A stretch of 64,000 nucleotides of DNA from a virus: IMG/VR virus record IMGVR_UViG_3300045988_067909. The stretch is one strand, 5' to 3'. The position numbers were made by a program, and so were the translations under genes. Numbering within the stretch: position 1 is the stretch's first letter; every line of letters starts with the position of its first letter. The notes beneath the pieces are model-generated. The model made no database searches and was not told the origin of the DNA. It was given only the letters and a program-made list of their open reading frames with translations. Positions 27,021 through 42,392 of this stretch are shown piece by piece.

Positions 27021-27061
27021 TCCCAGTATAGTCATTGACTATACTGGGTATTATTTTTTTT
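27021..27061 (+). terminator. rho-independent terminator (cccagtatagtca/tgactatactggg family)
   Basis: 13-bp stem followed by a T9 run; near-identical copies sit at 47942 and 63263. Confidence 0.7.
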
Positions 27062-27084: not shown

Positions 27085-27191
27085 TATACTATAACTGTGT
27101 ATGGTAGATACAGCTATTCGTAGTAGCTGTATCTAAATATAGCCATACACTTGTAGACTATAAGTCTACTTGCCGAAAGGAGGTGACTCCT
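27085..27191 (+). promoter_or_regulatory. promoter motif plus conserved structured 5' leader, copy 1
   Basis: TATACTATAA at 27085-27094. Hairpin 1: gtgtatggtagatacagct / agctgtatcta[aatataa]ccatacac with a variable loop. Hairpin 2: gtagac-tataa-gtctac. Hairpin 3: AGGAG-gtga-CTCCT, which sequesters the SD and ends right at the ATG. Confidence 0.6.
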
Positions 27192-27398
27192 ATGGCGAAT
27201 CCGGGATGCGTAGGTAACTACGCTAACCAATTAGCGGAACGTTCAGCCAATGTTGGCTGGATGATCCGCTATTGCCAAGATATAATCTATGATTATGTCT
27301 ATGGTAATAACGGTGTAAGTTTAGCCGAAGCTAAAAAAGCTGAAGCTTACTTGCTCCAACACGGTATTAGTCTCACTGTTGATCTAGACAAAGTCTAA
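27192..27398 (+). CDS. small-protein family member (MANPGCVGNYANQLAERSANVGW...)
   Basis: ATG at 27192 lies 8 nt after GGAGG. The track's GTG start at 27183 falls inside the RBS. Paralog of 27585, 63435 and 63810. Confidence 0.6.
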   Translation: MANPGCVGNYANQLAERSANVGWMIRYCQDIIYDYVYGNNGVSLAEAKKAEAYLLQHGISLTVDLDKV

Positions 27399-27412
27399 TA
27401 CCAATTAATATA

Positions 27413-27457
27413 CATGGGTAGGTGTTCACTCATCTACCCATGTATTATTTTTTTTGT
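27413..27457 (+). terminator. rho-independent terminator (catgggtag...ctacccatg family)
   Basis: Stem catgggtag/ctacccatg then tattattttttttg; an identical copy lies at 63636. Confidence 0.7.
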
Positions 27458-27478: not shown

Positions 27479-27584
27479 CATACTATAACTGTGTATGGTA
27501 GATACAGCTGGCAGGCTATAGCTGTATCTAAATATAACCATACACTTGTAGACATAGTCTACATGCCGAAAGGAGGTGACTCCT
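27479..27584 (+). promoter_or_regulatory. promoter motif plus conserved structured 5' leader, copy 2
   Basis: CATACTATAA, then the same hairpin 1 stems with a different loop (ggcaggctat), hairpin 2 gtagac-ata-gtctac, and the AGGAG-gtga-CTCCT hairpin abutting the ATG. Confidence 0.6.
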
Positions 27585-27785
27585 ATGGCAGGATGTGTTA
27601 TGAATTACCATAATACATTAGCAGAAAGATCTACCAATTTAGATTGGCAGATCAGAACTGCTATAAGCCTAGTGATTGATCGTTACTTTGATATTAACAA
27701 TGTAACGCATCATGAAGCTATTAAGGCTTATCGATTCCTTAAAGCACAAGGAATCAAATTACCTATAACTGAAAATCACTTATAG
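27585..27785 (+). CDS. small-protein family member (MAGCVMNYHNTLAERSTNLDW...)
   Basis: ATG 8 nt after GGAGG; paralog of 27192. Confidence 0.6.
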   Translation: MAGCVMNYHNTLAERSTNLDWQIRTAISLVIDRYFDINNVTHHEAIKAYRFLKAQGIKLPITENHL

Positions 27786-27860: not shown

Positions 27861-29084
27861 TTATTTTAAACCAAATGCTTCCATAGGATCCATCTCAACC
27901 ATTCTAACTTGGCTATCATGGAATGCTTTCATGGCAACGTTCTTAAGTTTAGATGCTATTTGTGGAGCAGCAGCACCAATATTCTTTACTCCTAGACGAT
28001 AGAAGATATTACCAGCACACGCATTACAAACACCATTCTCAGCCTCACATAAAGAAGCAAATCTAAACTGTACTGTTTTACCAATATATTGATTCATATT
28101 CTCAGAAGTCAACTCTACCAGTTTATTTCCTTCTTTCATAAAGCAATAGATGTATTCTTTTATATTGTCTTTATTTAGAGTGATTGTAATAGTACGTTTA
28201 GTACCACAGTCACTACCCTTGTCTAATGTCTGAATGTGTTGACATGCTGGCAGTAATAGTTTTTCCCAATAGCCACCAACTTCTGTACGGCTAGCACGAG
28301 AGTAAGGACCTTCGGCTAGAGAGTTAGCAAAGTCAGCATAGTCTTCTTTAGATATACCTGTCATATAGTTAGACATAATGATATTATAACCCTTAGTCGG
28401 ATCTGGGTTTTTAGTAATACCACGAACAACAAACATGTTTTTGAAATGGTTACTCATATTAGATTTAGCACCACTATTATAAGTATCCATAGCTGGGTCG
28501 TCTTTAAGAATCTCTTCAGCTAAGTCTAATAGTTCTTCTTGAATCTTCAATACTATTTTAGGATCTTTAGCATCTAACTCTTTACGATATTTCTTAATAA
28601 GTTCTTCTTTAGCCTTATTGATTTTTGTCGTAATAGTCAATAGTTTCATACTATAACTAGTAGACAATATATTTACATAAGGCATGAACTTTTGACCTTT
28701 CATAACAAAGTCTTGCATAACTTTAAGAGTCTTTCTATTCTCTAGAATAGCATATGAGATCTCTTGCATAATATTACCAACCATCTTCTTGGTAATTGGT
28801 TTATTGATATACCCAAACATATCAAACAAGTCTTTCTCGATGAATACTCTATTGAATACCCATAACCCTACAGTTGTAACAAAAGCATTCTTATTCTTTT
28901 TTCCTTCTGGTCCATATGAGCCAGCTGGAATAGTAACTAAATCATATGTATTGAATCTACGTTTACCGTTAAATTCACCAAACATGCCAATTACTGTAGA
29001 AGTCTTAGCACCCATATCTTGATCTATAGATAGGATATAATCTATATCTTTAGCATTAGTAATTCTATTAGATGTACGTTTCAT
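27861..29084 (-). CDS. multisubunit RNA polymerase beta' fragment: bridge helix, second Zn site and first trigger helix
   Basis: NSGAKSNMSNHFKNMFVVRG resembles E. coli beta' DSGARGS..QIRQLAGMRG. SRASRTEVGGYWEKLL resembles the bridge helix TALKTANSGYLTRRLV. GSDCGTK matches the beta' DDCGT Zn ligand, and CEAENGVCNAC is Cx6Cx2C (E. coli C888/C895/C898). NIGAAAPQIASKLKNVAMKAFH resembles the trigger helix [21 protein letters not shown]. The ORF ends inside the trigger loop. RBS AAGGAGG. Confidence 0.7.
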   Translation of the reverse strand: MKRTSNRITNAKDIDYILSIDQDMGAKTSTVIGMFGEFNGKRRFNTYDLVTIPAGSYGPEGKKNKNAFVTTVGLWVFNRVFIEKDLFDMFGYINKPITKKMVGNIMQEISYAILENRKTLKVMQDFVMKGQKFMPYVNILSTSYSMKLLTITTKINKAKEELIKKYRKELDAKDPKIVLKIQEELLDLAEEILKDDPAMDTYNSGAKSNMSNHFKNMFVVRGITKNPDPTKGYNIIMSNYMTGISKEDYADFANSLAEGPYSRASRTEVGGYWEKLLLPACQHIQTLDKGSDCGTKRTITITLNKDNIKEYIYCFMKEGNKLVELTSENMNQYIGKTVQFRFASLCEAENGVCNACAGNIFYRLGVKNIGAAAPQIASKLKNVAMKAFHDSQVRMVEMDPMEAFGLK

Positions 29085-29202: not shown

Positions 29203-29820
29203 ATGGACTCTAATTTTAATAAAGAAAATAAAGTCTCCTATCAAGAGCTGGCCCCTAGTTTACAGGCGATGCTTGATGGTAAGGCTAGTGTTACAGTTCT
29301 TAATAATCATATTAATGACAATGCACGACATATCACTAACGATGAACGTGCTAAATGGAATGCTACATTACAAGACGCTAATACATGGGCTAAGAACTAT
29401 GTAAATGGTCTTTTAGGTGACTTTGGTGGTCAAGGTGTAACTTTGATGGATGTAGTCAAATCTAAATTAGATAAGACTGAATTCGAAAACTTTAAACGTA
29501 CATTAGCACGTATTGCTTTTACTGGTTCGTATAATGATCTTATTGATAAACCATCTGGTATCTCTTTCTCTGATACTGCAAATAAAGCTTTGAATGCTGA
29601 TCGTGCAACTTTAGCAGATAGAGCTACTGTAGCTGACCGTGCAACTAATGCTGACTTAGCGGAAAATGCTAAACGTGTTGGTGGTATTCGTGTAACTATT
29701 GATGGTACTGCTCCAGCTAACCCTGAAAATAATAAAGAAATCTGGTTCAATACCACAAACTTGACAGTTTACTTCTACGTAAATAATCAATGGAGAATGA
29801 CTCGTTGCGCTGTTGCATAA
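29203..29820 (+). CDS. small tail-fibre-like protein
   Basis: RBS GGAGGAG. Contains HITNDERAKWNAT, the widespread fibre motif ARIAFTGSYNDLIDKPS, and a short ADRAT repeat. Confidence 0.65.
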   Translation: MDSNFNKENKVSYQELAPSLQAMLDGKASVTVLNNHINDNARHITNDERAKWNATLQDANTWAKNYVNGLLGDFGGQGVTLMDVVKSKLDKTEFENFKRTLARIAFTGSYNDLIDKPSGISFSDTANKALNADRATLADRATVADRATNADLAENAKRVGGIRVTIDGTAPANPENNKEIWFNTTNLTVYFYVNNQWRMTRCAVA

Positions 29821-31010
29821 GTCCTTTAGAGGAGACTTTCTACAATCTAACTAACGTGCAACTAATGATGTCAACAGGGTGTAATCTTAGTTGCAGGTAC
29901 TGCTATCAGGATGATAAGAAGAATAAGAATATGTCTAAAGAAGTTATGGAATCTTTTATAGACTTCTTATGTGATACAAATCCTGATGTCCCAGTTTTAA
30001 TAGATTTCTTTGGTGGTGAACCATTAGTAAACTGGCCGATAATGAAATATGGTTTAGAACTAATGGATGATTTAGGTTTAACTGAAAAGAAACTATATTT
30101 TATGGTATCCACTAATGGTACACTTATTACTGATGAGGTAGCTGAATACTTCAGAAAGTATAATGTCCATATCAATATATCTATAGATGGTACACCAGAG
30201 AAACACAATTACGAACGTAATAATTCTTACGATAAAACTATAGAGGGATTACATAAGTTATATGACCATGGTCTTTGTAGAGACATTACTGCTAGACTTA
30301 CATTCCCAAACAATTATTTTGGTAGTATAGAAGAGCATGTAAGAAGTGTATTAAACTTAGGTATCCCTGAAGTTACATTTGCAGCTATCTTAGCTGGTGG
30401 TATAACTGATGAAGAGTTAGCCACTTATGAGGAATCTATGTATAGAACTGCTATACTTATTCTTAAGTATGTAGAATATGGCTTAGCAGTTATTCCTAAG
30501 TATATGAGAAACTTCATAATGATGGAACACATAAATCAAGATTTCAAACCTAGACAACCATGTCATTTTAAAACCAATAGAGGTATTGTAGTAGATACTG
30601 ATGGGGTATTATTCGGATGCTCTATTGTCCCAAATTCAGATTTTAAAGAATATTCTTCTAAAGTGTATTCAGATACCGTAATTGGTAATGTCAAATACGG
30701 TATAGCTTATAATCGGAATATTGGGGACAAATACCCTTGTACTACGGCAAATGCTAAAAATGACTGTATCAATTGTGAAGCCAAGAGTATGTGTTTACCA
30801 TGTGCTATGGAAAATATGCTATCATCAACAAGAGACTATCATTTAGTTGCTGATGATAAATGTAAATTAATTAAGGCTAGATATAGAGTTGCATTACGTA
30901 TTCATAATTGGATACTACGAAATAAATTCGGAAGTGTTGCAATGTCTAGGCTAAAAGAAAATCATCTTCTTGGGGAAGATAAGTATAGCATAAGTTCATT
31001 AATAATATAG
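29790..31010 (+). CDS. radical SAM / SPASM-type enzyme (rSAM-1)
   Basis: CNLSCRYC (CxxxCxxC), FFGGEPL, and a C-terminal Cys-rich CINCEAKSMCLPCAMEN. The true start may be the ATG at about 29866 (MMSTGCNLS...). Confidence 0.8.
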   Translation: MENDSLRCCISPLEETFYNLTNVQLMMSTGCNLSCRYCYQDDKKNKNMSKEVMESFIDFLCDTNPDVPVLIDFFGGEPLVNWPIMKYGLELMDDLGLTEKKLYFMVSTNGTLITDEVAEYFRKYNVHINISIDGTPEKHNYERNNSYDKTIEGLHKLYDHGLCRDITARLTFPNNYFGSIEEHVRSVLNLGIPEVTFAAILAGGITDEELATYEESMYRTAILILKYVEYGLAVIPKYMRNFIMMEHINQDFKPRQPCHFKTNRGIVVDTDGVLFGCSIVPNSDFKEYSSKVYSDTVIGNVKYGIAYNRNIGDKYPCTTANAKNDCINCEAKSMCLPCAMENMLSSTRDYHLVADDKCKLIKARYRVALRIHNWILRNKFGSVAMSRLKENHLLGEDKYSISSLII

Positions 31011-31044
31011 AGTCAGTAACTTTAAGGGGAATTTTAGGAAAGAA

Positions 31045-32367
31045 ATGTTTTTAGAGTTTAAAGAAATAGGGAATGATGTAAGAGAAGTAGTATTCTATCT
31101 TACTAATGATAATAATATTGATTGTGACTATCTACCACCTAAGGGTAGACAATATATGTCTACCAGGGTGATAGATGCTATGATAGAGAAGATTACTAAG
31201 ATCTTTAAGGATTATAGACGTGTATATACTATCACATTCAAAGGTGGAGAACCTTTGATGTGTTGGGATAAGATTGTCTATATCATAGATAAACTAAAAG
31301 CTAATAATGTAATATGTAGATACAAACTATATACGAATCTGACTTTGATGACATTAGCTAAAGCTAAAGTTATTAAAGCTAATGCTATAGATGTAGTAGG
31401 TTATCTTGATGGTGAAGTAGAGCATAATAGTAAACATCGTACTGGGTATAAAGAAGCTATACGTGGACTAACTTGTTTACGTGAACTTAATATACTTAAG
31501 ACACATGTAACTATCCATATGACATTAATGGAAGATACTATTAAATACTTTGAAGATAACTTTGATTTCATTAGTAAGCTTGGAGTAAAGAGTATCTTAT
31601 TTGAACCAGCAGAATCTATAGATATAACTGGTAAATTTAAGACCTCTCTAAAGAAAGCTACTAAGTATGCTTATGAGCAATACTTCAAGTTTACTAAGAA
31701 TAGATTTGATGCATTATATCTTATATCATATTTAGATTATATAGTTCCAGATTATAAAGATACATCTGCTGATAGTAACTTCTTTACATCTGGACAACTA
31801 TATGTATCGCCATATGGTAAGTTATATGCTAATAGATTGGCATTGGTTAATGGTATTAGGCATATTGGTAATGTATACAGTAACCAATTAGTATTTCCTG
31901 ATACTATTGATATCCATAGCCACCCAAAATGTCGTGGATGTGTAGCTAAGAATGTATGTCAATCCTGTAGTGACATTGCTACATTCGATTCTAAATATCC
32001 GCATCAAAATATATGTCAACTAAATAGAGCTATTGCTGAAGTCGCAAGAGAGTTTATGGAAGACTGGAAATATAATACTTCTGGAATCTACAATAAGAAG
32101 ATTAAAAAGAATATTGTAGAGTCTACTAGTATTATGAATAGTCTTTATAATAAGCTTAAAAGAACCTATACTATTACTGACGGAAATAGGCCAACCGTTA
32201 AGTCTTTTATGACAGCATATGGTAGAGATTATATTTGTGAGCGCAAAGAGCCTCCTGAAAAGTTGAGAAAACTATATGAAAGATTTAGAATGATTCTCGG
32301 AGGAAACAATGGAAAACTTTACAACAGTGTACAGCAAACCACAAGCTGTAACAATGCTACTGACTAA
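31045..32367 (+). CDS. radical-SAM-like paralog with degenerate cluster motif (rSAM-2, probably catalytically altered)
   Basis: FKGGEPLM and the C-terminal CRGCVAKNVCQSC are kept, but the CxxxCxxC position reads NNIDCDYL, so only one of the three Cys remains (compare TNDCNLACSYC in rSAM-3). Confidence 0.6.
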   Translation: MFLEFKEIGNDVREVVFYLTNDNNIDCDYLPPKGRQYMSTRVIDAMIEKITKIFKDYRRVYTITFKGGEPLMCWDKIVYIIDKLKANNVICRYKLYTNLTLMTLAKAKVIKANAIDVVGYLDGEVEHNSKHRTGYKEAIRGLTCLRELNILKTHVTIHMTLMEDTIKYFEDNFDFISKLGVKSILFEPAESIDITGKFKTSLKKATKYAYEQYFKFTKNRFDALYLISYLDYIVPDYKDTSADSNFFTSGQLYVSPYGKLYANRLALVNGIRHIGNVYSNQLVFPDTIDIHSHPKCRGCVAKNVCQSCSDIATFDSKYPHQNICQLNRAIAEVAREFMEDWKYNTSGIYNKKIKKNIVESTSIMNSLYNKLKRTYTITDGNRPTVKSFMTAYGRDYICERKEPPEKLRKLYERFRMILGGNNGKLYNSVQQTTSCNNATD

Positions 32368-33661
32368 TGATTGTAACTTAGCATGTAGCTACTGCTTTGA
32401 ATCTAATAAGGGTAAAGACTATATGCCAAAAGAAATGGCATTAGATATTCTTAAGGCTACATACAACCAAGTAGACCCAATGGCTGGTATATTCACTTTA
32501 AACATGTTTGGTGGAGAACCATTAATGAATTGGGAGACTTTTAAAGCTGTATGTGATTATGTCTTAGAGAATAACCTTAAGATTCGTATTACTGCAACAA
32601 CTAACCTGACTTTACTTACTGATGAAATGATTGATTATATCGATGAGCTATCTATTCCTGTATTAGTATCTGTAGATGGTATCAAAGAAGTTCATGATAA
32701 GCATAGATGTAATAGTTTCGATAAAGTTATTGAGAATATGAAAAAGCTTATTGATAGAGACTTAGGATATCTTATTGAAGCACGTATGACAGTTGCTCCA
32801 GATACAGCTAAATATATGTATGAATCAGTTAAGATGCTAGTTGACTTAGGTATTAATAATATTGCTAATGTACCAGCATCTGACTTAGAATGGGATGCTC
32901 AATCTATTCAAGATTACAAAGATAATTACGAGAAGATTCTTGATATGTATATCGATATACTGAACGATGAATCTAATAAACGTAATATCTCTCTATATAA
33001 AGTAGACCAAGCATTAAATCTAGCATTAGAGCCTATTAAAGAAGATACTTCTATGTGTAATATTGGCAACCCTAGATGGGTTATTGTAGACTGGAAAGGT
33101 GATATTTGGCCTTGTCCTGATTATCCGACTACAGATAATGTAGATTTGATTGCTGGTAAGATTGGCAACTTCTATACTGGTGTAGATGAAACTAAAGTTG
33201 ACCCTAAGCCTATGGTTGCTACATATGAACTAGAACGTTGTAAGGGATGTGAAGCTATCTCTATTTGTAAGTCTGGTTGTCCTTATGAGAACTATACTAA
33301 GAATGGTAAGTTTAATGAACCAACCATTGGTTACTGCACTTTACAGAAAGCTTTTGTAGAAATCATTAAAGCTTATCAAGATAAGTTACTTGAAGCAACT
33401 AATATCCGTTCTAGACAGCTAAATGTCTTAATTGAAAATCTTAAAGTCAAGAAGTACTATGATGAGAAAGTTAAGACTATTAGTATTACTGATAGAGAAT
33501 TTGGCGTAAGATTAAATCATTTCGTTGAGAAGTATGAGAATCTAAATAATAAAGGTAATGTATTACCTAGTTTTGATACATATTTTAAACATGAGCTAAT
33601 GACTGTGAATGCTATTATTGCAGCATTGGTTGGTAAAAAAGTTGAGTTTGTGGAGGATTAA
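32309..33661 (+). CDS. radical SAM / SPASM-type enzyme (rSAM-3)
   Basis: GGAGG sits 6 nt upstream of the ATG. CNLACSYC, MFGGEPLMN, C-terminal CKGCEAISICKSGCPYEN. Overlaps the upstream gene by 59 nt. Confidence 0.8.
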   Translation: MENFTTVYSKPQAVTMLLTNDCNLACSYCFESNKGKDYMPKEMALDILKATYNQVDPMAGIFTLNMFGGEPLMNWETFKAVCDYVLENNLKIRITATTNLTLLTDEMIDYIDELSIPVLVSVDGIKEVHDKHRCNSFDKVIENMKKLIDRDLGYLIEARMTVAPDTAKYMYESVKMLVDLGINNIANVPASDLEWDAQSIQDYKDNYEKILDMYIDILNDESNKRNISLYKVDQALNLALEPIKEDTSMCNIGNPRWVIVDWKGDIWPCPDYPTTDNVDLIAGKIGNFYTGVDETKVDPKPMVATYELERCKGCEAISICKSGCPYENYTKNGKFNEPTIGYCTLQKAFVEIIKAYQDKLLEATNIRSRQLNVLIENLKVKKYYDEKVKTISITDREFGVRLNHFVEKYENLNNKGNVLPSFDTYFKHELMTVNAIIAALVGKKVEFVED

Positions 33662-33667
33662 TTTTAC

Positions 33668-35386
33668 ATGCCAACACAAGTAAAAAGAGGGAATACTGTT
33701 GAATACAGTATTCCCGATAAAATAGACAGAACCAAAGATAATATAGTAGCTAAAGCACCATTAGTTGCTATAGCTAGTGCAATAGCTGTCAATCTTAAAG
33801 AAGCTAAAGCATTAGAACGTGTACGATCTGGTTTTGGTTCTCCGGAGAATCGTATACGACGTGTAGTTGATGCTGGTGATGAAGTACAACGATTTAGTGA
33901 TAGTATCGTTATAGATGAATCACTTAAAGCATCTAGTATGAATATGCTATTAGGTATGGCATCTGAATTGATAAACAGTACAGTTGGTATTAGTGAATCA
34001 ATGGAGGGATATACTGTAGTTAAATATACCACACCTGGTAGATTTACTTGGAATGCTCCTAGGGGGACTAAGACAGTATTACTAGGTTTATGTGGTGGTG
34101 GTGGATCCATGGGTGCTAGTGGTGAATCTACGAGTTTCAATGAAGCCATTGTTAATGGTGGTAATAATATCTTTATTGATAACTTGCTAGCTGGTGTAAC
34201 TGGTTATCAAGTATCTTTATTTGAAAGCAGATTTGGTTACTATGGTAGACCAGAATCTTCTACTGATTGGTATACTAATCGTTCTGGTATGCACTGGGGT
34301 AGACAGAACTCGGGATTACCTGGTGATTTTATGACTACAGTTTTAAACGTTAAAAGTGGTTCTGCTCAATCTATTGTAGTCGGTGGTCCTGGTGCACCAA
34401 GATGGTATGGTGATGCTAATAGAAAATCTACTCAAGGGTTTGTATACTTAGCATATAAAACAGATGGTGATGATGAACCATATGGTTTAGATAAAGTATA
34501 TACTGTACCTGGCGACTATGAATATACAGTACCAGCAGGTGTACGTAAAATATCTGTAGTCTTAATTGGTGGTGGTGCATTTACTATTAGTGGTACTGTC
34601 GAAAATAAAGTTGAAATCTATGAATATATGGGTCGCTATATCAAACAAGGTGATTTTAGAAATTTCCCAGCTCAAAGCTATAAGCATCTAGATAGAGTTC
34701 TTGATGAATTAAACTATACTGGACCATTTACTAGATATGATAATCCACGTCAAGGTAGTTGGAAACAAACTAGATATAGGGCTCCACATAATTACCAAGT
34801 AGTAGGCTATATTCCATCACACTTACCTGGTGCTAATGGTGAACAATCTAAGTTTGGTGATATCGTAGCTAATGGTGGCGACCGAGATAATATCTCTTAC
34901 ACCACAGATACTGGTTGGAATCTTAATTTTGATGCACAAACAGGACCAACAGGGCGTGGTATGTTTAAAGATAGCATTAACCAAAAAGTTGGCGGTCCAG
35001 GTGAATATAAACGTGTAGTATTAGATGTATATCCTGGGCAAAAGTTTAATGTACATGTAGGACGTGGTGCAAAATACGAATCTGATGGTTCTTTTAAAGC
35101 TAGTGATGGTGCTGTTGGTATAATGAACGGTGATTATCGTGAAACGTCTAGTGGTTTATTTAGAGCTATGGCTCCGGGAGACTTGTATACTGGTGCGACA
35201 TTGAATCTTATGATTAGTAACTTACATGTTTTAAATAAAGCATTCAATGATTTAGAAAATAAGTATTGGGAAAATGACTTATGTAAGACATCTTGTCAAG
35301 TATCTTGCCAGGCTTCTTGTCAAATCGCATGTCAAAACTGTCAATATGATACTTGCCACAATCAAAATTGTGGGGGGTGGTCGTAA
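33668..35386 (+). CDS. large Gly-rich-module protein with C-terminal Cx3C 'CQ-ladder' (candidate rSAM substrate / fibre-like structural protein)
   Basis: Three modules of the type YTTPGRFTWNAPRGTKTVLLGLCGGGGS / YTVPGDYEYTVPAGVRKISVVLIGGGA / GPGEYKRVVLDVYPGQKF. C-terminal tail: LCKTSCQVSCQASCQIACQNCQYDTCHNQNCGGWS. Confidence 0.65.
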   Translation: MPTQVKRGNTVEYSIPDKIDRTKDNIVAKAPLVAIASAIAVNLKEAKALERVRSGFGSPENRIRRVVDAGDEVQRFSDSIVIDESLKASSMNMLLGMASELINSTVGISESMEGYTVVKYTTPGRFTWNAPRGTKTVLLGLCGGGGSMGASGESTSFNEAIVNGGNNIFIDNLLAGVTGYQVSLFESRFGYYGRPESSTDWYTNRSGMHWGRQNSGLPGDFMTTVLNVKSGSAQSIVVGGPGAPRWYGDANRKSTQGFVYLAYKTDGDDEPYGLDKVYTVPGDYEYTVPAGVRKISVVLIGGGAFTISGTVENKVEIYEYMGRYIKQGDFRNFPAQSYKHLDRVLDELNYTGPFTRYDNPRQGSWKQTRYRAPHNYQVVGYIPSHLPGANGEQSKFGDIVANGGDRDNISYTTDTGWNLNFDAQTGPTGRGMFKDSINQKVGGPGEYKRVVLDVYPGQKFNVHVGRGAKYESDGSFKASDGAVGIMNGDYRETSSGLFRAMAPGDLYTGATLNLMISNLHVLNKAFNDLENKYWENDLCKTSCQVSCQASCQIACQNCQYDTCHNQNCGGWS

Positions 35387-36561
35387 TGAAGATATTTATG
35401 ACAGATGAATTATATGACTATATTAAGACTCGACCAGATTTTAATGAATTCCAAACAGCTTATGATAAACTTACTTATGGTGAAACTATAAGAGAAGAGC
35501 TAGAAGCACAGTATAATTCTATGACTTCAGGAGAATTAGCTGAGTATCTTAATAAAGTCAAATCTGAAGTAGCAGATAGACCAGATTTAGTTAGATATAT
35601 AAACTATACATCTGATATATCAGTACAGACTCTAATGACTATAGTTAATGATACTAGTCTACCTAAAAAAGATAAGATGTATGCATTACTAAGATTATTC
35701 ACTTATAGTTATGCTGATGGTATCCATTTTGAATATGTAGTTGATTTTGTCACTATGTATAATGCTATGAGTGCTGAAGAGTTGGCTACATTACCTAGCT
35801 ATATTCATGTAAACTATATTGAATTGAATGGCTATTATTTGTATAAGACTATGCAAGATAACCATGAGACTTTCGATACAACTGCTTATGATAAACTAGT
35901 AGAGCATTATAAAACAGTCAAAGAGAAAGTTAAACCATATTATAGTGATGCTGATGTAATAGATAATATATGGCTTGAAGTCCAAGCTTACTTTATTAGA
36001 CTATTACATAATGACTTAACTAATACTGCTATAGATATCATCTTAGAACGTATTAATCTAGACCATGAAAAGCTAACCAATAAATACAAATATGTATCTT
36101 TAGGTGTCATGTGGCTATATGAAATGTATATGGAAACTAGTTTTAATGCTAGTAACTATCATGGGTTTATCTTATGGGCATTTAAACTATTTAGATATAT
36201 AGATAGTGCATTAGCTGATCATGATAACCTATTTGATGGTTTAAGATTCTATGATAAAGTTAATATTATAGCATTTGCTATTATAGTTAGACGTCTTCTT
36301 AATATTAAAGAAGTCTTCATTTCAATAGTTCAATTACGTTTATTTAACTTAGACTTTACTGATGAATTATTCTTAGCTGGTGAGGGTGTAACTAATGTAA
36401 ATCTTACATCTAAGCCATCTAGAGATGCTATGTTGTCTTTTAAGAATTACGTAGACGTATGGTTTAATAATAATAAGCCTAAGCTAATTCAGCTTAGAGA
36501 TGATTCGGCAACTATGGAAGACTTCCGTGCTATTATTCGTGATTACTTACATTCAGTCTAG
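35386..36561 (+). CDS. hypothetical helical protein
   Basis: I prefer the ATG at 35386 (MKIFMTDELYDYI), with GGGGGGTGG upstream and a TAATG overlap with the upstream stop, over the track's 35353 start. Confidence 0.5.
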   Translation: MKIFMTDELYDYIKTRPDFNEFQTAYDKLTYGETIREELEAQYNSMTSGELAEYLNKVKSEVADRPDLVRYINYTSDISVQTLMTIVNDTSLPKKDKMYALLRLFTYSYADGIHFEYVVDFVTMYNAMSAEELATLPSYIHVNYIELNGYYLYKTMQDNHETFDTTAYDKLVEHYKTVKEKVKPYYSDADVIDNIWLEVQAYFIRLLHNDLTNTAIDIILERINLDHEKLTNKYKYVSLGVMWLYEMYMETSFNASNYHGFILWAFKLFRYIDSALADHDNLFDGLRFYDKVNIIAFAIIVRRLLNIKEVFISIVQLRLFNLDFTDELFLAGEGVTNVNLTSKPSRDAMLSFKNYVDVWFNNNKPKLIQLRDDSATMEDFRAIIRDYLHSV

Positions 36562-36577
36562 GAGGTGATAGTTAATT

Positions 36578-37780
36578 ATGGCAGATATAGAATTTAATAT
36601 GAATAACCGCTATAGATGGACTATCCCTGATATTCCATATGTAGTTAAGAAAGATAATAAAACAACAACTGAGATACCTAATAATGTAGATATAGCTTTT
36701 GATAGACACTTTGTGGATACTACAGTACGTGGATTAGTAGAATCCTATCAAACTTGTGTAGCTATATATGCTGAAATGAAACAGTTGTCATATAATCCAA
36801 CTGTAGATGCTAAGGGTAGAAACTATTGGGAATCTAGTACACCAAAGTATCAACAAAACCAAGAAGCTAATATAGATACAGATCACTCTAATAAGATGAA
36901 CTTTAACAATCCATCTTCTGGAGATCATTTACATCCATCTCGTATTGTAGATCTAAATCAACTATTATCTTCTAGTACACAGGTAGAGAGTAATACATTA
37001 GAGAATATATTAGACTTCTATGGTGTATATCATCCAAGTATTGGTGGTGGGTCTACTAATATAACTGAACGTATCGTTTTAAGTAATGATAATGCAGAGC
37101 CACCTAAGATGGAACTTGTAGATGCATTTAGAGATGCTAATGGTAATACTAAGTTCCCAGCTAGAACTGATGGTCAAAGTTATAATCAACCAATTAAACT
37201 AGAATGGTTTGCTAGACTTAGAGAGAATCTAATTAATACATCTAACTTCTTCATTAAGAATAATGGTAAGTTTTATGATGTAAATGGATATTGTGTTGTA
37301 GGATGTCAAGTAAACTGTCAGTCCACATGTCAATTGACTTGTCAACATAGACAATTGGGTGATGATTTCTTAAATAAAACATTCTTAGAGTGGAATGAAG
37401 ATCTACAAACTATATACAAACTAGGTTGGCAAACATATGACCACCCAGACCATGACCATAATGTATACATATTCTTCTATGACCCATGGGGTAGACGTTG
37501 GATGTATCGTAATACTAGATACTATGGAGATGGTTATTATCTATTACCAGATCAAAATGATATATACTCTATACGTCCTACACATCATGCGGATGATAAC
37601 ATGAATCTAGAGTGGTATCCTGGTGCGCCATATGATAACCCTAAACAATATCATTGGGAGATGGTACGTAATATACATACAGGTAAAAATGACTTGGTTA
37701 ATAAACTAGACCCACATTGGAATGATGCTGGTAATTACTATGTATCAGATGGTTATTGCCATAGCTGTGATAATAGATAG
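36578..37780 (+). CDS. Cys-ladder protein B1 (GCQVNCQSTCQLTCQHRQLGDDF; C-terminal CHSCDNR)
   Basis: RBS TAGGAGGTGATAG. Tandem paralog of 37797..38921; the first ~65 aa and the central FPARTDGQSYNQPIKLEWFARLRENLINTSNFFIKNNGKFYD are near-identical in both. Confidence 0.7.
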   Translation: MADIEFNMNNRYRWTIPDIPYVVKKDNKTTTEIPNNVDIAFDRHFVDTTVRGLVESYQTCVAIYAEMKQLSYNPTVDAKGRNYWESSTPKYQQNQEANIDTDHSNKMNFNNPSSGDHLHPSRIVDLNQLLSSSTQVESNTLENILDFYGVYHPSIGGGSTNITERIVLSNDNAEPPKMELVDAFRDANGNTKFPARTDGQSYNQPIKLEWFARLRENLINTSNFFIKNNGKFYDVNGYCVVGCQVNCQSTCQLTCQHRQLGDDFLNKTFLEWNEDLQTIYKLGWQTYDHPDHDHNVYIFFYDPWGRRWMYRNTRYYGDGYYLLPDQNDIYSIRPTHHADDNMNLEWYPGAPYDNPKQYHWEMVRNIHTGKNDLVNKLDPHWNDAGNYYVSDGYCHSCDNR

Positions 37781-37796
37781 GAGGTGATAGTTAATT

Positions 37797-38921
37797 ATGG
37801 CAGATATAGAATTTAATATGAACGATCGCTATAAATGGACTATCCCTGATATCCCATATATAGTGAAGAAAGATAACAAAATCACTACAGAAATCCCAGC
37901 TGATGTAGATATAGCTTTTGATAGACACTTTGTGGATACTACTGTACGTGGATTAGTAGAATCCTATCAAACTTGCGTAGCTATATATGCTGAGATGAGT
38001 CAGCTGGTATATAATCCACAAACCAACCGTCAAGGTAATAACTACTGGGATGGCAATAATAGATTTAGACAAAACCAAGAGAATAATGTAGACTTAGACC
38101 ATGCTAATAAGATGAACTTTACTAATCCACATAAAGAACCACATAGTTCAGGTACACGTATAGCAAATCTAAATTCTATACTCAATGATCCAGATGGTGT
38201 TAGAGAAGATAATCTAGAATCTATACTAGATTATTATAGAACCTATAATTCTGATACTAATGGTGGTATATCTGTAGACTTGTCTATGAATATATTAAAT
38301 AATGGATTAAAAGCAGAAGCACCAGCATATATACAAGTAGATGCATTTAGAGATGCTAATAGCAATACTAAATTCCCTGCTAGAACTGATGGTCAAAGCT
38401 ATAATCAACCTATAAAATTGGAATGGTTTGCTAGACTACGTGAGAATCTCATTAATACATCTAACTTCTTCATTAAGAATAATGGTAAGTTTTATGATAA
38501 TGGTGGTTTCTGTGTTATAGGTTGTCAGGTTAACTGTCAATCTACATGTCAATTGACCTGCCAGCATAGACAGCTAGGTGACGATTTCTTAAATTATACT
38601 AAGCTTGAACGTTATGAGCATGCTGAGATTATTAAGAAATTAGGTTGGCCAGACTTCCGTGGACGTAATGGTAATGAGTCATTAAACTATTATGACCCCT
38701 GGGGACGTATATGGCGTTGGTATGTATTTGCTAAACAAGGTTATGGTGCATACTATTTAGGTCATGAACCGCATGACAATTATTGGTATTTTGAAAATAA
38801 TATCGGTTGGTATCCTGGTGCTCCGTTTGATAGACCTGCTGGTGTAAACCCAGATGGTAGCATACCAACACCAAAACGTGATCCTGATTATGATCCTTGT
38901 GCTGGTTGTGAAAATAGATAG
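37797..38921 (+). CDS. Cys-ladder protein B2 (GCQVNCQSTCQLTCQHRQLGDDF; C-terminal CAGCENR)
   Basis: The ~45 nt around the start (taggaggtgatagttaattatggcagatatagaatttaatatgaa) are identical to B1; the C-terminal third diverges. Confidence 0.7.
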   Translation: MADIEFNMNDRYKWTIPDIPYIVKKDNKITTEIPADVDIAFDRHFVDTTVRGLVESYQTCVAIYAEMSQLVYNPQTNRQGNNYWDGNNRFRQNQENNVDLDHANKMNFTNPHKEPHSSGTRIANLNSILNDPDGVREDNLESILDYYRTYNSDTNGGISVDLSMNILNNGLKAEAPAYIQVDAFRDANSNTKFPARTDGQSYNQPIKLEWFARLRENLINTSNFFIKNNGKFYDNGGFCVIGCQVNCQSTCQLTCQHRQLGDDFLNYTKLERYEHAEIIKKLGWPDFRGRNGNESLNYYDPWGRIWRWYVFAKQGYGAYYLGHEPHDNYWYFENNIGWYPGAPFDRPAGVNPDGSIPTPKRDPDYDPCAGCENR

Positions 38922-38926
38922 AATAT

Positions 38927-39967
38927 ATGAATAACGATTATAAAGAAATATACCTAATGCTTACTGAGGCTTGCCCTAATAGATGTGAGTATTGTTATAT
39001 TAAGGGTAGAGATAACCCTAAGAGTATGACATTTGAACAGATTGAAGAAATAATACGTGTAGAAAAACCTACACGTATTATATTCTTTGGTGGTGAACCA
39101 TTGCTCAAGATAGATCTAATAGAGCAAGTATTAGAGAAGTATTATGGTAAGATTAAATTCCAAGTAGTCACATCTACTGTAGTTAATTTTAAAGAGTTTA
39201 TTGAATTAGATAAGAAGTATCCATTTAGTGAGATACAGTTATCATGGGATGGTTTCTCAGATAAGAACCGTGTTGATACTTGTGGTAATTCTATATCTAA
39301 GACAGTATATGACAATATCCAATATGCTATATCTCAAGGAACTAAGTTTGATGTAAAGTGTGTTATTGGTAATGAGAATATACAAATCTTTGATGAGATA
39401 CATGAGACTTTCGTAGAATGGAAGAAGAAGTATAATGTCAATGGTGAGTTTGTATTAGCACATAGACCATACTATGCACCAGAATATTTAGAGTTATTCC
39501 GTGAGAAGTATAAGAAGACATTCACTCTAGAGAGAATGTATATGGAACATATGAATCGTATTATAGCTATCTTACAAGATGATGATAACTTTGGTTCATG
39601 TGATGTCGGTAAGTATAAGGTTATTACACCATATGGTGAAGAATCTTACTGTACAGCATTATCTCAAGAAGAGACTGAGTTTGATAAGGATATCTTACAA
39701 GCACCATGTACATCTCCAGATTGTAAGATATGTAAATACAAATGTATTTGTGATGGTGGGTGTAGATATGAACGCTATGCTCAGTTTGGTGATAAGTGGA
39801 GAGAAAACCACTTAGATGCTACATGTCAAATGTCTGAAATCATATATACTACTATTAGAGAATGGATAGACTCTTTAGATGATGATGACTATGAAAAACT
39901 ATTAGCTTACGTTAGAAGCTATAAAGATCATTTAGAACGATACCATCAGGAGGTTACTCACGAATGA
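38927..39967 (+). CDS. radical SAM / SPASM-type enzyme (rSAM-4)
   Basis: CPNRCEYC, FFGGEPLL, C-terminal CTSPDCKICKYKCICDGGCRYE. Confidence 0.8.
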   Translation: MNNDYKEIYLMLTEACPNRCEYCYIKGRDNPKSMTFEQIEEIIRVEKPTRIIFFGGEPLLKIDLIEQVLEKYYGKIKFQVVTSTVVNFKEFIELDKKYPFSEIQLSWDGFSDKNRVDTCGNSISKTVYDNIQYAISQGTKFDVKCVIGNENIQIFDEIHETFVEWKKKYNVNGEFVLAHRPYYAPEYLELFREKYKKTFTLERMYMEHMNRIIAILQDDDNFGSCDVGKYKVITPYGEESYCTALSQEETEFDKDILQAPCTSPDCKICKYKCICDGGCRYERYAQFGDKWRENHLDATCQMSEIIYTTIREWIDSLDDDDYEKLLAYVRSYKDHLERYHQEVTHE

Positions 39968-41214
39968 TTGACTTTTTACCTGAGCGTATATATAACGCTA
40001 TTAAAGAAGACCAAGAATATGAAAATATCTTAATGTATAGAGAGAATGAATTCCGTAAGCTAATTACGTTCAAAGAATTCTGTCTATATGATAACGTCTT
40101 CATTAAGAATAAAACAAAATGGGAATACTTTACTGGGACTTTACAGAGCCTGGTTAAAAAGTATTGTCCAGAATATATGACTGAACTAGATATTGCTATC
40201 TCTCCTAGGAAAACTAGAGCAGATTATCTCAATATCTACTACAATGATACTAAGATTGACTTTGAAACTAAGCTATTCGTATTATCTAAAATAGCTGATA
40301 TGTCTAAGTATAAAGATGATTACTTTAACTATCTTGGTATGTATTGTAACTTATATGAAAATATTGCTAAGTCTGATGCAGAGAAATACTCTGCTATCAT
40401 TCATTATACATATATACAATATGCTACATTAGCATATGCTAAGACATTGCCTAAAGATTCACAATGTATCTTTAAGATTAAGAAATATCTAGATACATTA
40501 CGTTTTGGATATGGTAATTTATCTGCTGATGCTTTAAACGTTATCTATATCAATACTTTTGTACAATGTATCACATTAGTTCTAGAAGAACTTGAGAATG
40601 ATATGTTAGTTAAAGAGATGCTAGATGATGTACAGTTACCAGAATCACTATTTGAAGTCCAATATGGTAACTATGGTATTACTAGATTAGCATTATGGTA
40701 TAAACTATTTGAGATTAATTTCTCAGTACGAGACTTTGCTAAATGTAAAGAGCTATTCAATAAGATGGTAGATTTAATTGATGGTAATCTTAAAGAACCA
40801 CAATTACTATTCCGTGGTTTATACGTATATAACCAAAATAATATTCCATATTTTTATGGGATATTAAGATTCGTATGTCGAATGCTCGGTGCATATGACC
40901 CAACTCTTACATTATCTAATCTCTCCGAAGAAGATAAACAATTTATCTCCATATATGATTGGGATTCTAGTGACCTATTGATTTCTGATAGACTTACTTC
41001 GGAGATATTCTATAACTATGCTCTTAGAACTAACTTATGGTTCTATAATTCTGCTGAAGCACTTAAAGCATATAAATATTTCGTTTATGAACAAGCTGGA
41101 TTAGAATTACCATCCGAAGATAGAATTCTTAAACCATTAGATGATTTCTTAAGTTCTTTCTTAGATGATGAACCAGCTGAAGAAGTTGTACCAAACCCTA
41201 AGGGTGATAAGTAA
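39964..41214 (+). CDS. hypothetical helical protein
   Basis: ATGA overlap with the upstream stop; 416 aa; no motif recognised. Confidence 0.5.
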   Translation: MIDFLPERIYNAIKEDQEYENILMYRENEFRKLITFKEFCLYDNVFIKNKTKWEYFTGTLQSLVKKYCPEYMTELDIAISPRKTRADYLNIYYNDTKIDFETKLFVLSKIADMSKYKDDYFNYLGMYCNLYENIAKSDAEKYSAIIHYTYIQYATLAYAKTLPKDSQCIFKIKKYLDTLRFGYGNLSADALNVIYINTFVQCITLVLEELENDMLVKEMLDDVQLPESLFEVQYGNYGITRLALWYKLFEINFSVRDFAKCKELFNKMVDLIDGNLKEPQLLFRGLYVYNQNNIPYFYGILRFVCRMLGAYDPTLTLSNLSEEDKQFISIYDWDSSDLLISDRLTSEIFYNYALRTNLWFYNSAEALKAYKYFVYEQAGLELPSEDRILKPLDDFLSSFLDDEPAEEVVPNPKGDK

Positions 41215-42392
41215 TGTATGATCGTATAGATGCGGTTACATTTAAGATATCTGAATATTGTAATCTAGACTGTGTATACTGTTTTCAAAAATATGATACT
41301 AAGACTAGATATGATGGGTTTACTGATTTTGATCAGCTAGTTAAGTTCTTAAGAAAGATGCCATTAGGGGATACTTTAGAATTCAAAGTTACTGGTGGAG
41401 AATCTAGTCTTCATTGTGATAAGATTAGAAGTGCTTATAGAAAGCTTAAGAAACTAGAGCGTTATAAGAACGTAAACATAGAGTTTACGACCATTTCTAA
41501 TGGCACCAATATAGATGGGTTGACAGAACTCTGGAATGATGGTATACTAAATCCATGGGGATGTAAGATATCCTGGGATGGGGTTTATAGTGCATCTAAA
41601 TCACGTAAAGTAAAAAATAATTCTTATGATGATGAGTATTTTAAAGATATCATTCGTAAGCTAGGTAAGTCTGACTATAGAGATAAAGTCTTAGTTAGAA
41701 CTGCTTTAACACCAGATACTGTAGACGAACTATATCAAGCATATAGATTTGCTATAGATAATGGCTGTACTAAATGGGAATATTATTTACTTAGTGATTG
41801 TGATGAATACAAAGATCCAAAGTTCATAGAGAGACTAAGACCACAACTATATCATATATACAATGATAGTAAAGACTTTCCTGAATCTATTGTAGCTAAT
41901 CTAGATTCTATGGCTTATGTACATACAGACTTATCTGATGCTACAAAGTTAAGATGTATTAGCTGTAGACATCTTGGTCATTTCTTGCATATAGATATAC
42001 ATGGTAATATATACCCTTGTGGATACTTCTCTGATGATTCCTATTATGATGACCAAACATTATCTATAGGGGACATTTACTCGGGTTTAGATAAATATAA
42101 ATTAGAGAAGTTTTGTGATGAGTATAATAATCTTCCCATGTGTAGCATACAAGATGGGTGTGAATGTTTACATTGTTTTGAATGTCCTGCTATTAGTCAC
42201 CTATACTACAACAATATGCAGTATAAGCTAGGACAACAATGTAAGATTAGACACTTAGAACTAGACTTGTATAGAGAGATATTCTCAGACTACACATTCG
42301 ATATGTCTCGTATACAAAGAAACTTTAATGTGTATAATGAACTTGAGTACCACAAGTGTGGATTATGTGAATCCCTTCCATTCAAAGAATAG
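41214..42392 (+). CDS. radical SAM / SPASM-type enzyme (rSAM-5)
   Basis: CNLDCVYC, VTGGESSL, C-terminal Cys-rich CSIQDGCECLHCFECP. TAATG overlap with the upstream gene. Confidence 0.75.
   Translation: MYDRIDAVTFKISEYCNLDCVYCFQKYDTKTRYDGFTDFDQLVKFLRKMPLGDTLEFKVTGGESSLHCDKIRSAYRKLKKLERYKNVNIEFTTISNGTNIDGLTELWNDGILNPWGCKISWDGVYSASKSRKVKNNSYDDEYFKDIIRKLGKSDYRDKVLVRTALTPDTVDELYQAYRFAIDNGCTKWEYYLLSDCDEYKDPKFIERLRPQLYHIYNDSKDFPESIVANLDSMAYVHTDLSDATKLRCISCRHLGHFLHIDIHGNIYPCGYFSDDSYYDDQTLSIGDIYSGLDKYKLEKFCDEYNNLPMCSIQDGCECLHCFECPAISHLYYNNMQYKLGQQCKIRHLELDLYREIFSDYTFDMSRIQRNFNVYNELEYHKCGLCESLPFKE

Follow-up and report, generated by a model that had tools for sequence, protein, structure and literature searches.

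A degenerate radical-SAM/SPASM paralog retained beside intact maturases in a phage cluster of cysteine-ladder proteins

In radical S-adenosylmethionine (SAM) enzymes of the PapB type, auxiliary cluster I (AuxI) binds the substrate thiol, an electron is left behind on an auxiliary cluster whenever a thioether is formed, and the return of this electron to the SAM cluster is obligatorily intermolecular, probably proceeds via the second auxiliary cluster, and can be mediated by redox proteins (PMC10470005). The role of the auxiliary clusters of SPASM enzymes is still debated and has been called largely enigmatic (PMC10470005). The anSME enzyme ligates AuxI through C255, C261, C276, and C330, and auxiliary cluster II (AuxII) through C317, C320, C326, and C348 (PMC5715301). 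Here, we describe ORF2, an open reading frame (ORF) of 440 amino acids (aa) with an ATG start (31045-32367, + strand, taken from the ORF list), which lies in the window, i.e., the whole stretch of 64,000 nucleotides (nt) from the IMG/VR virus record IMGVR_UViG_3300045988_067909. ORF2 encodes a degenerate radical SAM (rSAM)/SPASM paralog and shares a gene cluster with four paralogs that carry an intact CX3CX2C motif, namely rSAM1 (29790-31010), rSAM3 (32309-33661), rSAM4 (38927-39967), and rSAM5 (41214-42392), which agrees with the otherwise intact maturase cluster described in an initial annotation of this DNA. Both the SAM-cleaving site and the substrate-thiol AuxI site of ORF2 appear to be gone, and its outer-cluster site appears to be complete. 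With somewhat better than even confidence, ORF2 is considered a pseudo-enzyme, likely a tandem copy of rSAM3, which is incompetent for radical chemistry and has been retained as an accessory of the adjacent thioether-forming rSAM/SPASM enzymes.

The described systems closest to this locus are the CteB/SCIFF maturase (5WGG/5WHY; TIGR03974) and the PapB family (NF047865). CteB was the first match of ORF2 in a Foldseek search against the PDB (5WHY/5WGG, E 3e-13, followed by anSME, TigE, ChlB, and SkfB; probability 1.00), the sole match of ORF2 in a PDB sequence search (E 0.002), and the best match of rSAM3 in the same search (E 3e-24), and the ladder proteins encoded next to ORF2 share the SCIFF-like CQxxCQxxC pattern. 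CteB has CX3CX2C and both auxiliary clusters, whereas ORF2 lacks the ligands of the SAM cluster and of AuxI; in addition, the presumed substrates here are phage proteins of 200-570 aa instead of 45-residue peptides. For PapB, the requirement for an intermolecular electron step suggests what use an AuxII-only paralog could have (PMC10470005), although ORF2 differs from this family in being without the catalytic and substrate-binding cluster ligands.

Degenerate rSAM homologs beside true maturases are already known. TIGR04347, named 'pseudo-SAM/SPASM protein' in the NCBIfam library itself, and TIGR04150 ('pseudo-rSAM protein, GG-Bacteroidales system') comprise homologs of rSAM/SPASM proteins that have no SAM-cluster motif and provide a precedent for the pairing of an active and a degenerate protein. 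In Bacteroides cassettes, TIGR04150 is encoded beside the TIGR04148 rSAM peptide maturase and its precursor (PMC4573289). Unlike these families, ORF2 is phage-encoded, seems to have originated independently from its own neighbour, and has also lost the AuxI ligands; it is set apart from them by scores. What appears new in ORF2 is thus its recent independent origin from a neighbouring phage gene together with the AuxII-only pattern. The Twitch enzymes SkfB and BtrN likewise have one auxiliary cluster instead of two, but Twitch proteins keep AuxI, are without CX2CX5CX3C, and are catalytic, so that ORF2, which is also without the SAM cluster, is their mirror image (PMC5715301). The Twitch domain pattern (AuxI kept, CX2CX5CX3C absent) is accordingly the opposite of that found in ORF2. 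As an analogy only, the Dph1 and Dph2 proteins of eukaryotic diphthamide synthesis are paralogous Fe-S subunits that work as one heterodimer and have asymmetric roles. The Dph1-Dph2 heterodimer has a [4Fe-4S](Cys)3 cluster (PMC8251694); its fold and chemistry are different.

Cofactor sites, family scores and fold

To define which positions ORF2 has lost, a conserved-column audit was carried out, in which ORF2 was aligned with 28 rSAM/SPASM proteins that carry the motif (the four intact paralogs of the window, their orthologs in related phages, and four bacterial relatives) and columns conserved in at least 75% of them were considered. Leaving the initiator Met aside, 16 of the 21 conserved columns are kept by ORF2, and the five changed columns are all cofactor positions: C23N and C30L in the SAM cluster, S120Y in the ribose motif, and C244S and C263N in AuxI. 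The positions kept include C296, C299, C305, and C324 of AuxII as well as C308, G67-G68-E69, N98, D122-G123, and R132. The alignment with the intact paralogs and SPASM relatives therefore confirmed the loss of the SAM cluster reported in the initial annotation and revealed S120Y, C244S, and C263N in addition.

At the former SAM-cluster loop (YLTNDNNIDCDYL, residues 18-30; 31096-31134, + strand), the alignments place NDNNIDCDYL of ORF2 where the four paralogs read CX3CX2C. The cluster motif of the radical SAM superfamily is absent, and only the middle cysteine, C27, is left, exactly one of the three cysteines as had been claimed; the equivalent loop of rSAM3 is LLTNDCNLACSYC (32357-32395). Several SAM-binding motifs (GGE, N98, D122-G123, and R132) appear to be kept. 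The GGE motif, which binds the SAM amino group, lies in FKGGEPLM (31237-31260, + strand), which is invariant in the 13 protein variants of ORF2, and the conservation of GGEPL was noted correctly at the outset. In the ribose-motif region (GYLDGEVEHNSKHR; 31399-31440, + strand), the audit identified Tyr120 (codon 31402-31404) at the position of the otherwise invariant Ser, with D122, G123, and R132 kept. These ribose-motif residues were assigned by analogy with the pair Ser211/Arg223 of SkfB, which positions the SAM ribose and has the same 12-residue spacing (PMC6231123).

In the SPASM domain, the first half is damaged and the second is not. At its start (31765-31836, + strand), the first cysteine is replaced by Ser244 and the second by Asn263, while the hairpin Gly258 is kept. 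Further downstream, CRGCVAKNVCQSC (31930-31968, + strand; C296, C299, C305, and C308) keeps CX2CX5CX2C, the first three cysteines of which are AuxII ligands by homology, and QNICQL (32005-32022, + strand) keeps C324, the final cysteine of the SPASM domain, which is the homolog of anSME C348 and the fourth AuxII ligand. The assignment of AuxI and AuxII ligands follows homology to anSME C317/C320/C326/C330 and C348 (PMC5715301). With C296, C299, C305, and C324 in the columns of anSME C317, C320, C326, and C348, the AuxII half of the domain is predicted to be whole. The full seven-cysteine SPASM motif, CX9-15GX4C...CX2CX5CX3C...C, is absent, five of its seven cysteines being present; the earlier statement that SPASM-like cysteines are kept is thus correct for CX2CX5CX2C...C and incorrect for positions 244 and 263. 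ORF2 would be expected to bind one [4Fe-4S] cluster, at the AuxII site, and to be unable either to cleave SAM or to hold a substrate cysteine at AuxI.

ORF2 belongs to a SCIFF/PapB-like system yet scores below every family cutoff tested. The Pfam Radical_SAM model (PF04055) gives ORF2 28.4 bits, under the 29.5 cutoff, with a match that starts at profile position 31, past the cluster loop, and gives the four intact paralogs 48-79 bits. The best NCBIfam match of ORF2 is the PapB family (NF047865; 68.4 bits, cutoff 340 bits), which is also the best match of the four intact paralogs (59-199 bits, all far under 340). For the SCIFF maturase model TIGR03974, ORF2 has no match at E ≤ 0.01 in NCBIfam, and rSAM3 (129.6 bits) and rSAM1 (104.4 bits) both fall below its cutoff of 425 bits. 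TIGR04347 matches ORF2 with 36 bits over residues 15-186 only, below its 525-bit cutoff, and none of the 25 NCBIfam families with an ORF2 match at E ≤ 0.01 is TIGR04150, the presence of this model in the library release being unverified. PHROG 1802 matches ORF2 with an E value of 1.1e-21.

The fold seems to have been preserved in spite of these losses. In an AlphaFold2 (AF2) model of ORF2 (mean predicted local distance difference test (pLDDT) score 61, predicted template modelling (pTM) score 0.63), six beta-alpha units form a (beta/alpha)6 core over residues 14-216, mostly with pLDDT 70-90, i.e., the predicted structure has the partial (beta/alpha)6 TIM barrel of the radical SAM superfamily. 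The confidence of the model is moderate, and its alignment consisted of nine sequences; this input was shallow because a homologue search with rSAM3 returned only variants of 98-100% identity. Two further cysteines are predicted to be remote from the cluster site, C91 at the start of a strand and C144 in an outer helix. Between ORF2 and rSAM3, the C-terminal extensions show no significant homology (Smith-Waterman score 29 vs 28.4 +/- 5.1 for shuffles), and with an alignment score at the shuffle level, a shared C-terminal dimerisation helix is not claimed.

Integrity, selection and origin of ORF2

The CxxxCxxC motif of ORF2 is not recovered by a frameshift or by a different start codon. In-frame stops occur about 12 codons 5' of its ATG, and the motif is absent from both other frames of the ORF2 DNA, which are rich in stops; the sole CxxxCxxC within 31000-32400 is rSAM3's own. 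Two of the events that could have overturned the initial annotation were therefore sought and excluded. An assembly artefact was also ruled out, since the same sequence state recurs in 51 loci on independent metagenome contigs from many samples. The start of ORF2 is preceded at a distance of 5 nt by AGGA (31036-31039, + strand), which reads as a ribosome-binding site. A promoter scan was uninformative (103 sites vs 97 expected).

The 3' end of ORF2 overlaps the 5' end of rSAM3 by 59 nt (32309-32367, + strand) in differing frames, exactly as had been reported. In the sublineage that is 90% identical, the overlap is also present (locus L001, 6260-7582 and 7524-8876), and no ORF2-frame synonymous change separates the sublineages within this stretch. 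Translational coupling of the two genes, which had been derived from the overlap, is possible; rSAM3 has its own strong site, GGAGGA (32299-32304, + strand, read within the ORF2 coding sequence), ending 4 nt ahead of its ATG, and coupling is therefore not required.

ORF2 is, as far as sequence can tell, a live gene under purifying selection. It is open in 51 loci that represent 15 nucleotide alleles and 13 protein variants, with zero internal stops. Against the 90% sublineage (P0001; locus L001), 106 synonymous and 55 non-synonymous differences give a ratio of non-synonymous to synonymous rates (dN/dS) of 0.092, which is in line with the values of its neighbours (0.058-0.137). Constraint is strongest in the SPASM segment (0.040), followed by the barrel (0.094) and then the C-terminal extension (0.155). 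Between the two sublineages, identity is 89-90% for ORF2, 79-82% for rSAM1, and 96-97% for rSAM3, so that the degenerate copy is better conserved than one of the intact copies. At the former ligand positions, residue 23 is N or T between alleles, as expected if this residue no longer ligates, and residue 30 is L throughout; the loop of the sister sublineage, NDTNIECDYL, retains the degenerate state. The cysteines of CX2CX5CX2C and C324 are invariant in all alleles.

The distribution of ORF2 is narrow. Contigs of 260,470 and 261,007 bp encode the protein, as do IMG/VR viral contigs as long as 267 kb, and in a scan of viral contigs ORF2 and rSAM1 were confined to two sublineages, that of the window and its 90% sister. 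The same kind of scan with an rSAM3 alignment identified a family of 230-267 kb phages whose rSAM3 orthologs have 38-54% identity, and both rSAM1 and ORF2 are absent in all related representatives examined. In these relatives, a fibre-like 205-aa gene, where present, directly precedes rSAM3, which is followed by the ladder gene, whereas both sublineages with ORF2 keep the order rSAM1-ORF2-rSAM3-ladder as well as the 59-nt overlap. No closer relative of ORF2 was found elsewhere: a HMMER search over 1.84 billion representatives gave nothing nearer than the rSAM3 paralog (25% identity, E 6.6e-15), a word-indexed search for distant orthologs gave one 90% relative only, tblastn of phage records gave only HxsB of a Leptospira phage (24%), and megablast gave no match. 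Among the 148 nearest representatives, five are without CX3CX2C and all five are N-terminally truncated, leaving no full-length protein without the canonical motif.

Regarding its origin, clade-profile scoring assigned ORF2 78.6 bits with the rSAM3 clade and 34.9 bits with the single-sequence r381 profile; the profiles of rSAM1, rSAM4, rSAM5, and rSAM5-like proteins gave no score on ORF2. BLASTP aligned ORF2 collinearly with rSAM3 over residues 13-379 (23% identity, E 3e-17). A neighbour-joining tree was less clear than the profile scores, and because ORF2 sits on a long branch it could not be placed cleanly. Considering the rSAM3-clade score, the collinear BLASTP match, and the phage distribution, ORF2 is most likely a tandem copy of rSAM3, which would have diverged fast after the loss of catalysis and then stabilised.

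Proposed role and its alternatives

ORF2 may work with rSAM3 and/or rSAM1 in crosslinking the SCIFF-like ladders of adjacent phage proteins. As in PapB, thioether formation by rSAM1 or rSAM3 would leave an electron on an auxiliary cluster; the AuxII cluster of ORF2 would shuttle this electron between the auxiliary clusters of its neighbours and the SAM cluster, and such a relay would allow efficient multi-crosslinking of cysteine ladders. Keeping only the AuxII site would make ORF2 suited to mediate the intermolecular electron step of the PapB type. The initial annotation had proposed a non-catalytic or scaffold paralog: the selective losses, the kept fold, the dN/dS of 0.092, and the intact neighbours support this reading. 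On our assessment, electron relay is slightly favoured over a scaffold or substrate-holding role, the latter being nearly as likely, and the two roles may coexist.

Several observations weigh against an accessory role of this kind. The evidence for a partnership with rSAM1 and rSAM3 consists of conserved adjacency and the gene overlap. The SAM-binding residues that are retained (GGE, R132) would be needless for a pure relay. In the AF2 model, the SPASM region is weaker and the tail (residues 342-440) is unmodelled, confidence being low in both. All 11 cysteines of ORF2 are invariant, which is about 17% likely by chance given 15% variable sites, and since only about 10% divergence is available, conservation of single residues is weak evidence. 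If four losses fell at random among the ten ligand cysteines, all AuxII ligands would be spared with a probability of 15/210 = 0.07, so the loss pattern is suggestive, not decisive. Finally, related phages mature similar ladders without ORF2, which is thus dispensable for the basic chemistry.

A narrower version of the proposal, in which a maturase gave rise to ORF2 as a subunit devoted to electron relay that kept AuxII alone, is rather unlikely. About equally doubtful is a pure chaperone or scaffold that binds the ladders or an active rSAM, with a cluster that is structural or absent. The kept barrel fold, GGE motif, R132, and hairpin Gly would fit such a protein, as would the absence of an RRE-like domain from the five paralogs, from which it follows that substrate recognition must come from elsewhere; however, the part that was destroyed is the substrate-thiol-binding AuxI site, the strongest constraint falls on the AuxII-bearing SPASM segment, and the family-wide 402- and 416-aa proteins of the cluster are better candidates for recognition.

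It is improbable that ORF2 has been repurposed outside ladder maturation, as a virion component, a protein binding SAM or S-adenosylhomocysteine, or a decoy against a host rSAM-based defence. SAM-contacting residues are partly kept, the gene region is rich in tail fibres, and ORF2 is lineage-specific, as accessory and conflict genes often are. Nevertheless, it is wedged between two maturase genes, overlaps rSAM3, and belongs to one co-directional block with the substrates; moreover, no defence or anti-defence signal was found (PADLOC was not run), and the similarity of ORF2 to viperin (22.9 bits) is generic rSAM similarity.

The chance that ORF2 is still an enzyme, holding a cluster through non-canonical ligands (e.g., C27, C73, and an Asp) or catalyzing a non-radical reaction, is considered quite small. 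Non-canonical rSAM cluster motifs are known in other families, C27 and C73 (four residues past the Glu of GGE) are conserved, and C27 has acidic neighbours, namely Asp22, Asp28, and residue 26, which is either Asp or Glu. Nothing was found in favour of the altered chemistry that had also been suggested, the former ligand positions being Asn/Thr (variable between alleles) and Leu, which do not ligate iron. The Ser of the ribose motif has become a bulky Tyr, the modelled positions of C91 and C144 speak against their use as ligands, and a full-length protein without the canonical motif is missing among the 148 nearest representatives. Least credible, and strongly disfavoured, is a decaying, functionless relic whose disruption is still to come, for although ORF2 is a lineage-specific duplicate without catalytic residues and with a long branch in the paralog tree, its 440 codons show the low dN/dS given above (106 synonymous vs 55 non-synonymous differences), stops and frameshifts are absent from 15 alleles in 51 loci, and the losses are confined to cofactor positions instead of being spread over conserved columns.

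ORF2 represents a natural dissection of the auxiliary-cluster question, in which the sites for the SAM cluster and the substrate cluster have been removed and the outer-cluster ligands kept under selection beside PapB/CteB-like enzymes. Binding of a single cluster and stimulation of the neighbouring enzymes would speak for a role of AuxII in electron transfer between molecules and would provide a first mechanism for the named but uncharacterised pseudo-rSAM families; a relay, if true, would be natural genetic evidence for an electron-transfer role of AuxII in SPASM enzymes. Were ORF2 merely a passive scaffold, it would extend the list of pseudo-enzymes only modestly. ORF2 also dates an event of duplication and repurposing within a fast-changing phage gene cluster.

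The maturase cluster and the surrounding phage genome

ORF2 belongs to a block of genes (29203-42392) that are all on the + strand and comprise, from the 5' end, the fibre-like 205-aa gene, rSAM1, ORF2, rSAM3, a 572-aa ladder protein, a 402-aa protein, ladder proteins of 400 and 374 aa, rSAM4, a 416-aa protein, and rSAM5. rSAM1, the lineage-specific companion of ORF2 (start at 29805 according to gene callers; Pfam 79 bits), has the PapB family as its best match (165 bits), and rSAM3, the closest relative of ORF2, is an intact CteB/PapB-like maturase found family-wide in these phages. The best family matches of the cluster enzymes are PapB, SCIFF, QhpD, and CXXX-repeat maturases, all of which form thioethers, and the chemistry of the cluster is likely the crosslinking of ladder cysteines to side chains through thioethers. 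The number of rSAM paralogs varies among related phages (L039 15680-16747 and 18164-19309; L051 15843-16922; L084 15238-16221). Some relatives have an extra 'rSAM5-like' gene (327-359 aa) and a 381-aa rSAM beside a 400-aa ladder protein; neither of these two rSAM genes occurs in the window, whose lineage has rSAM1 and ORF2 instead. Like receptor-binding modules, the maturase cluster evolves through the gain and loss of genes.

The presumed substrates are large proteins. The 572-aa protein (33668-35386, + strand) ends in a SCIFF-like cysteine ladder (CKTSCQVSCQASCQIACQNCQYDTCHNQNCG) and has a weak Pfam SCIFF match (E 0.012), and the 400- and 374-aa proteins (36578-38921, + strand; 36578-37780 and 37797-38921) contain a central CxxxCQxxCQxxCQxxCQ. 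Family-wide, the ladder is strongly conserved, with a consensus of roughly (F/W)D..G.C..SCQVxCQxxCQ(L/I)xCQxCQYxTCHNQNCG. It occurs in the window and in L039, L051, L052, L076, L084, and L088, at the C-terminus of proteins of 199-574 aa and, in the 400- and 374-aa proteins of the window and similar proteins of about 400 aa in L039 and L052, in a central position. At every related locus examined, a ladder gene lies within about 435 nt 3' of rSAM3, with no listed gene between them. The ladder proteins are probably fibre or other structural proteins of the phage, which suggests that rSAM crosslinking here targets large, probably structural, phage proteins and not small peptides. Such crosslinking of SCIFF-like motifs would be unusual in itself, and no description of the system was found in the literature on phage rSAM, thioether, and tail-fibre systems and on pseudo-rSAM proteins. 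A 161-aa ORF antisense to the 572-aa ladder gene (33664-34149, - strand) is of low complexity, rich in Ser, Pro, and Leu, and probably not a gene.

The 402-aa (35353-36561) and 416-aa (39964-41214, + strand) proteins are distant paralogs of each other (21% identity, E 9e-7) without a Pfam or PHROG match. Orthologs of both were found in L039, L051, L052, L056, L067, and L088, and a single homolog in the more distant L076, L080, and L084; none was found in L085. The rSAM domain of all five paralogs begins near residue 12, leaving no N-terminal RRE-like recognition domain, and because of this the 402- and 416-aa proteins are candidate substrate-recognition or chaperone proteins.

The window comes from a phage genome of about 260 kb, has a GC content of about 32%, and holds many tail-fibre-like genes. 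Split genes for the beta subunit of a multisubunit RNA polymerase were identified at 27861-29084 (- strand; phrog_2962, E 3.8e-71) and 58741-60285 (+ strand; phrog_2987, E 1.5e-63), the former directly upstream of the maturase block and opposite to it in strand. Jumbo phages of the phiKZ/AR9 type typically have RNA-polymerase genes split in this way. Two proteins (50501-52282 and 52360-55077) have YadA head, stalk, and anchor domains, to which the larger protein adds an SLH domain at its C-terminus, an architecture typical of the trimeric autotransporters of Negativicutes, e.g., Veillonella. These proteins may give a clue to the host, or may point to an adhesin of host origin that serves as a fibre. 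Two small tandem ORFs with GTG starts (27183-27398, 71 aa; 27576-27785, 69 aa) share an MTPMA start and LAERS.N..W.IR and appear to be paralogs. Strong terminator-like hairpins at 27022-27048 and 27410-27445 (stems of 12 and 15 bp, each followed by a T run) bracket the 71-aa ORF, and the 69-aa ORF starts about 130 nt past the second hairpin.

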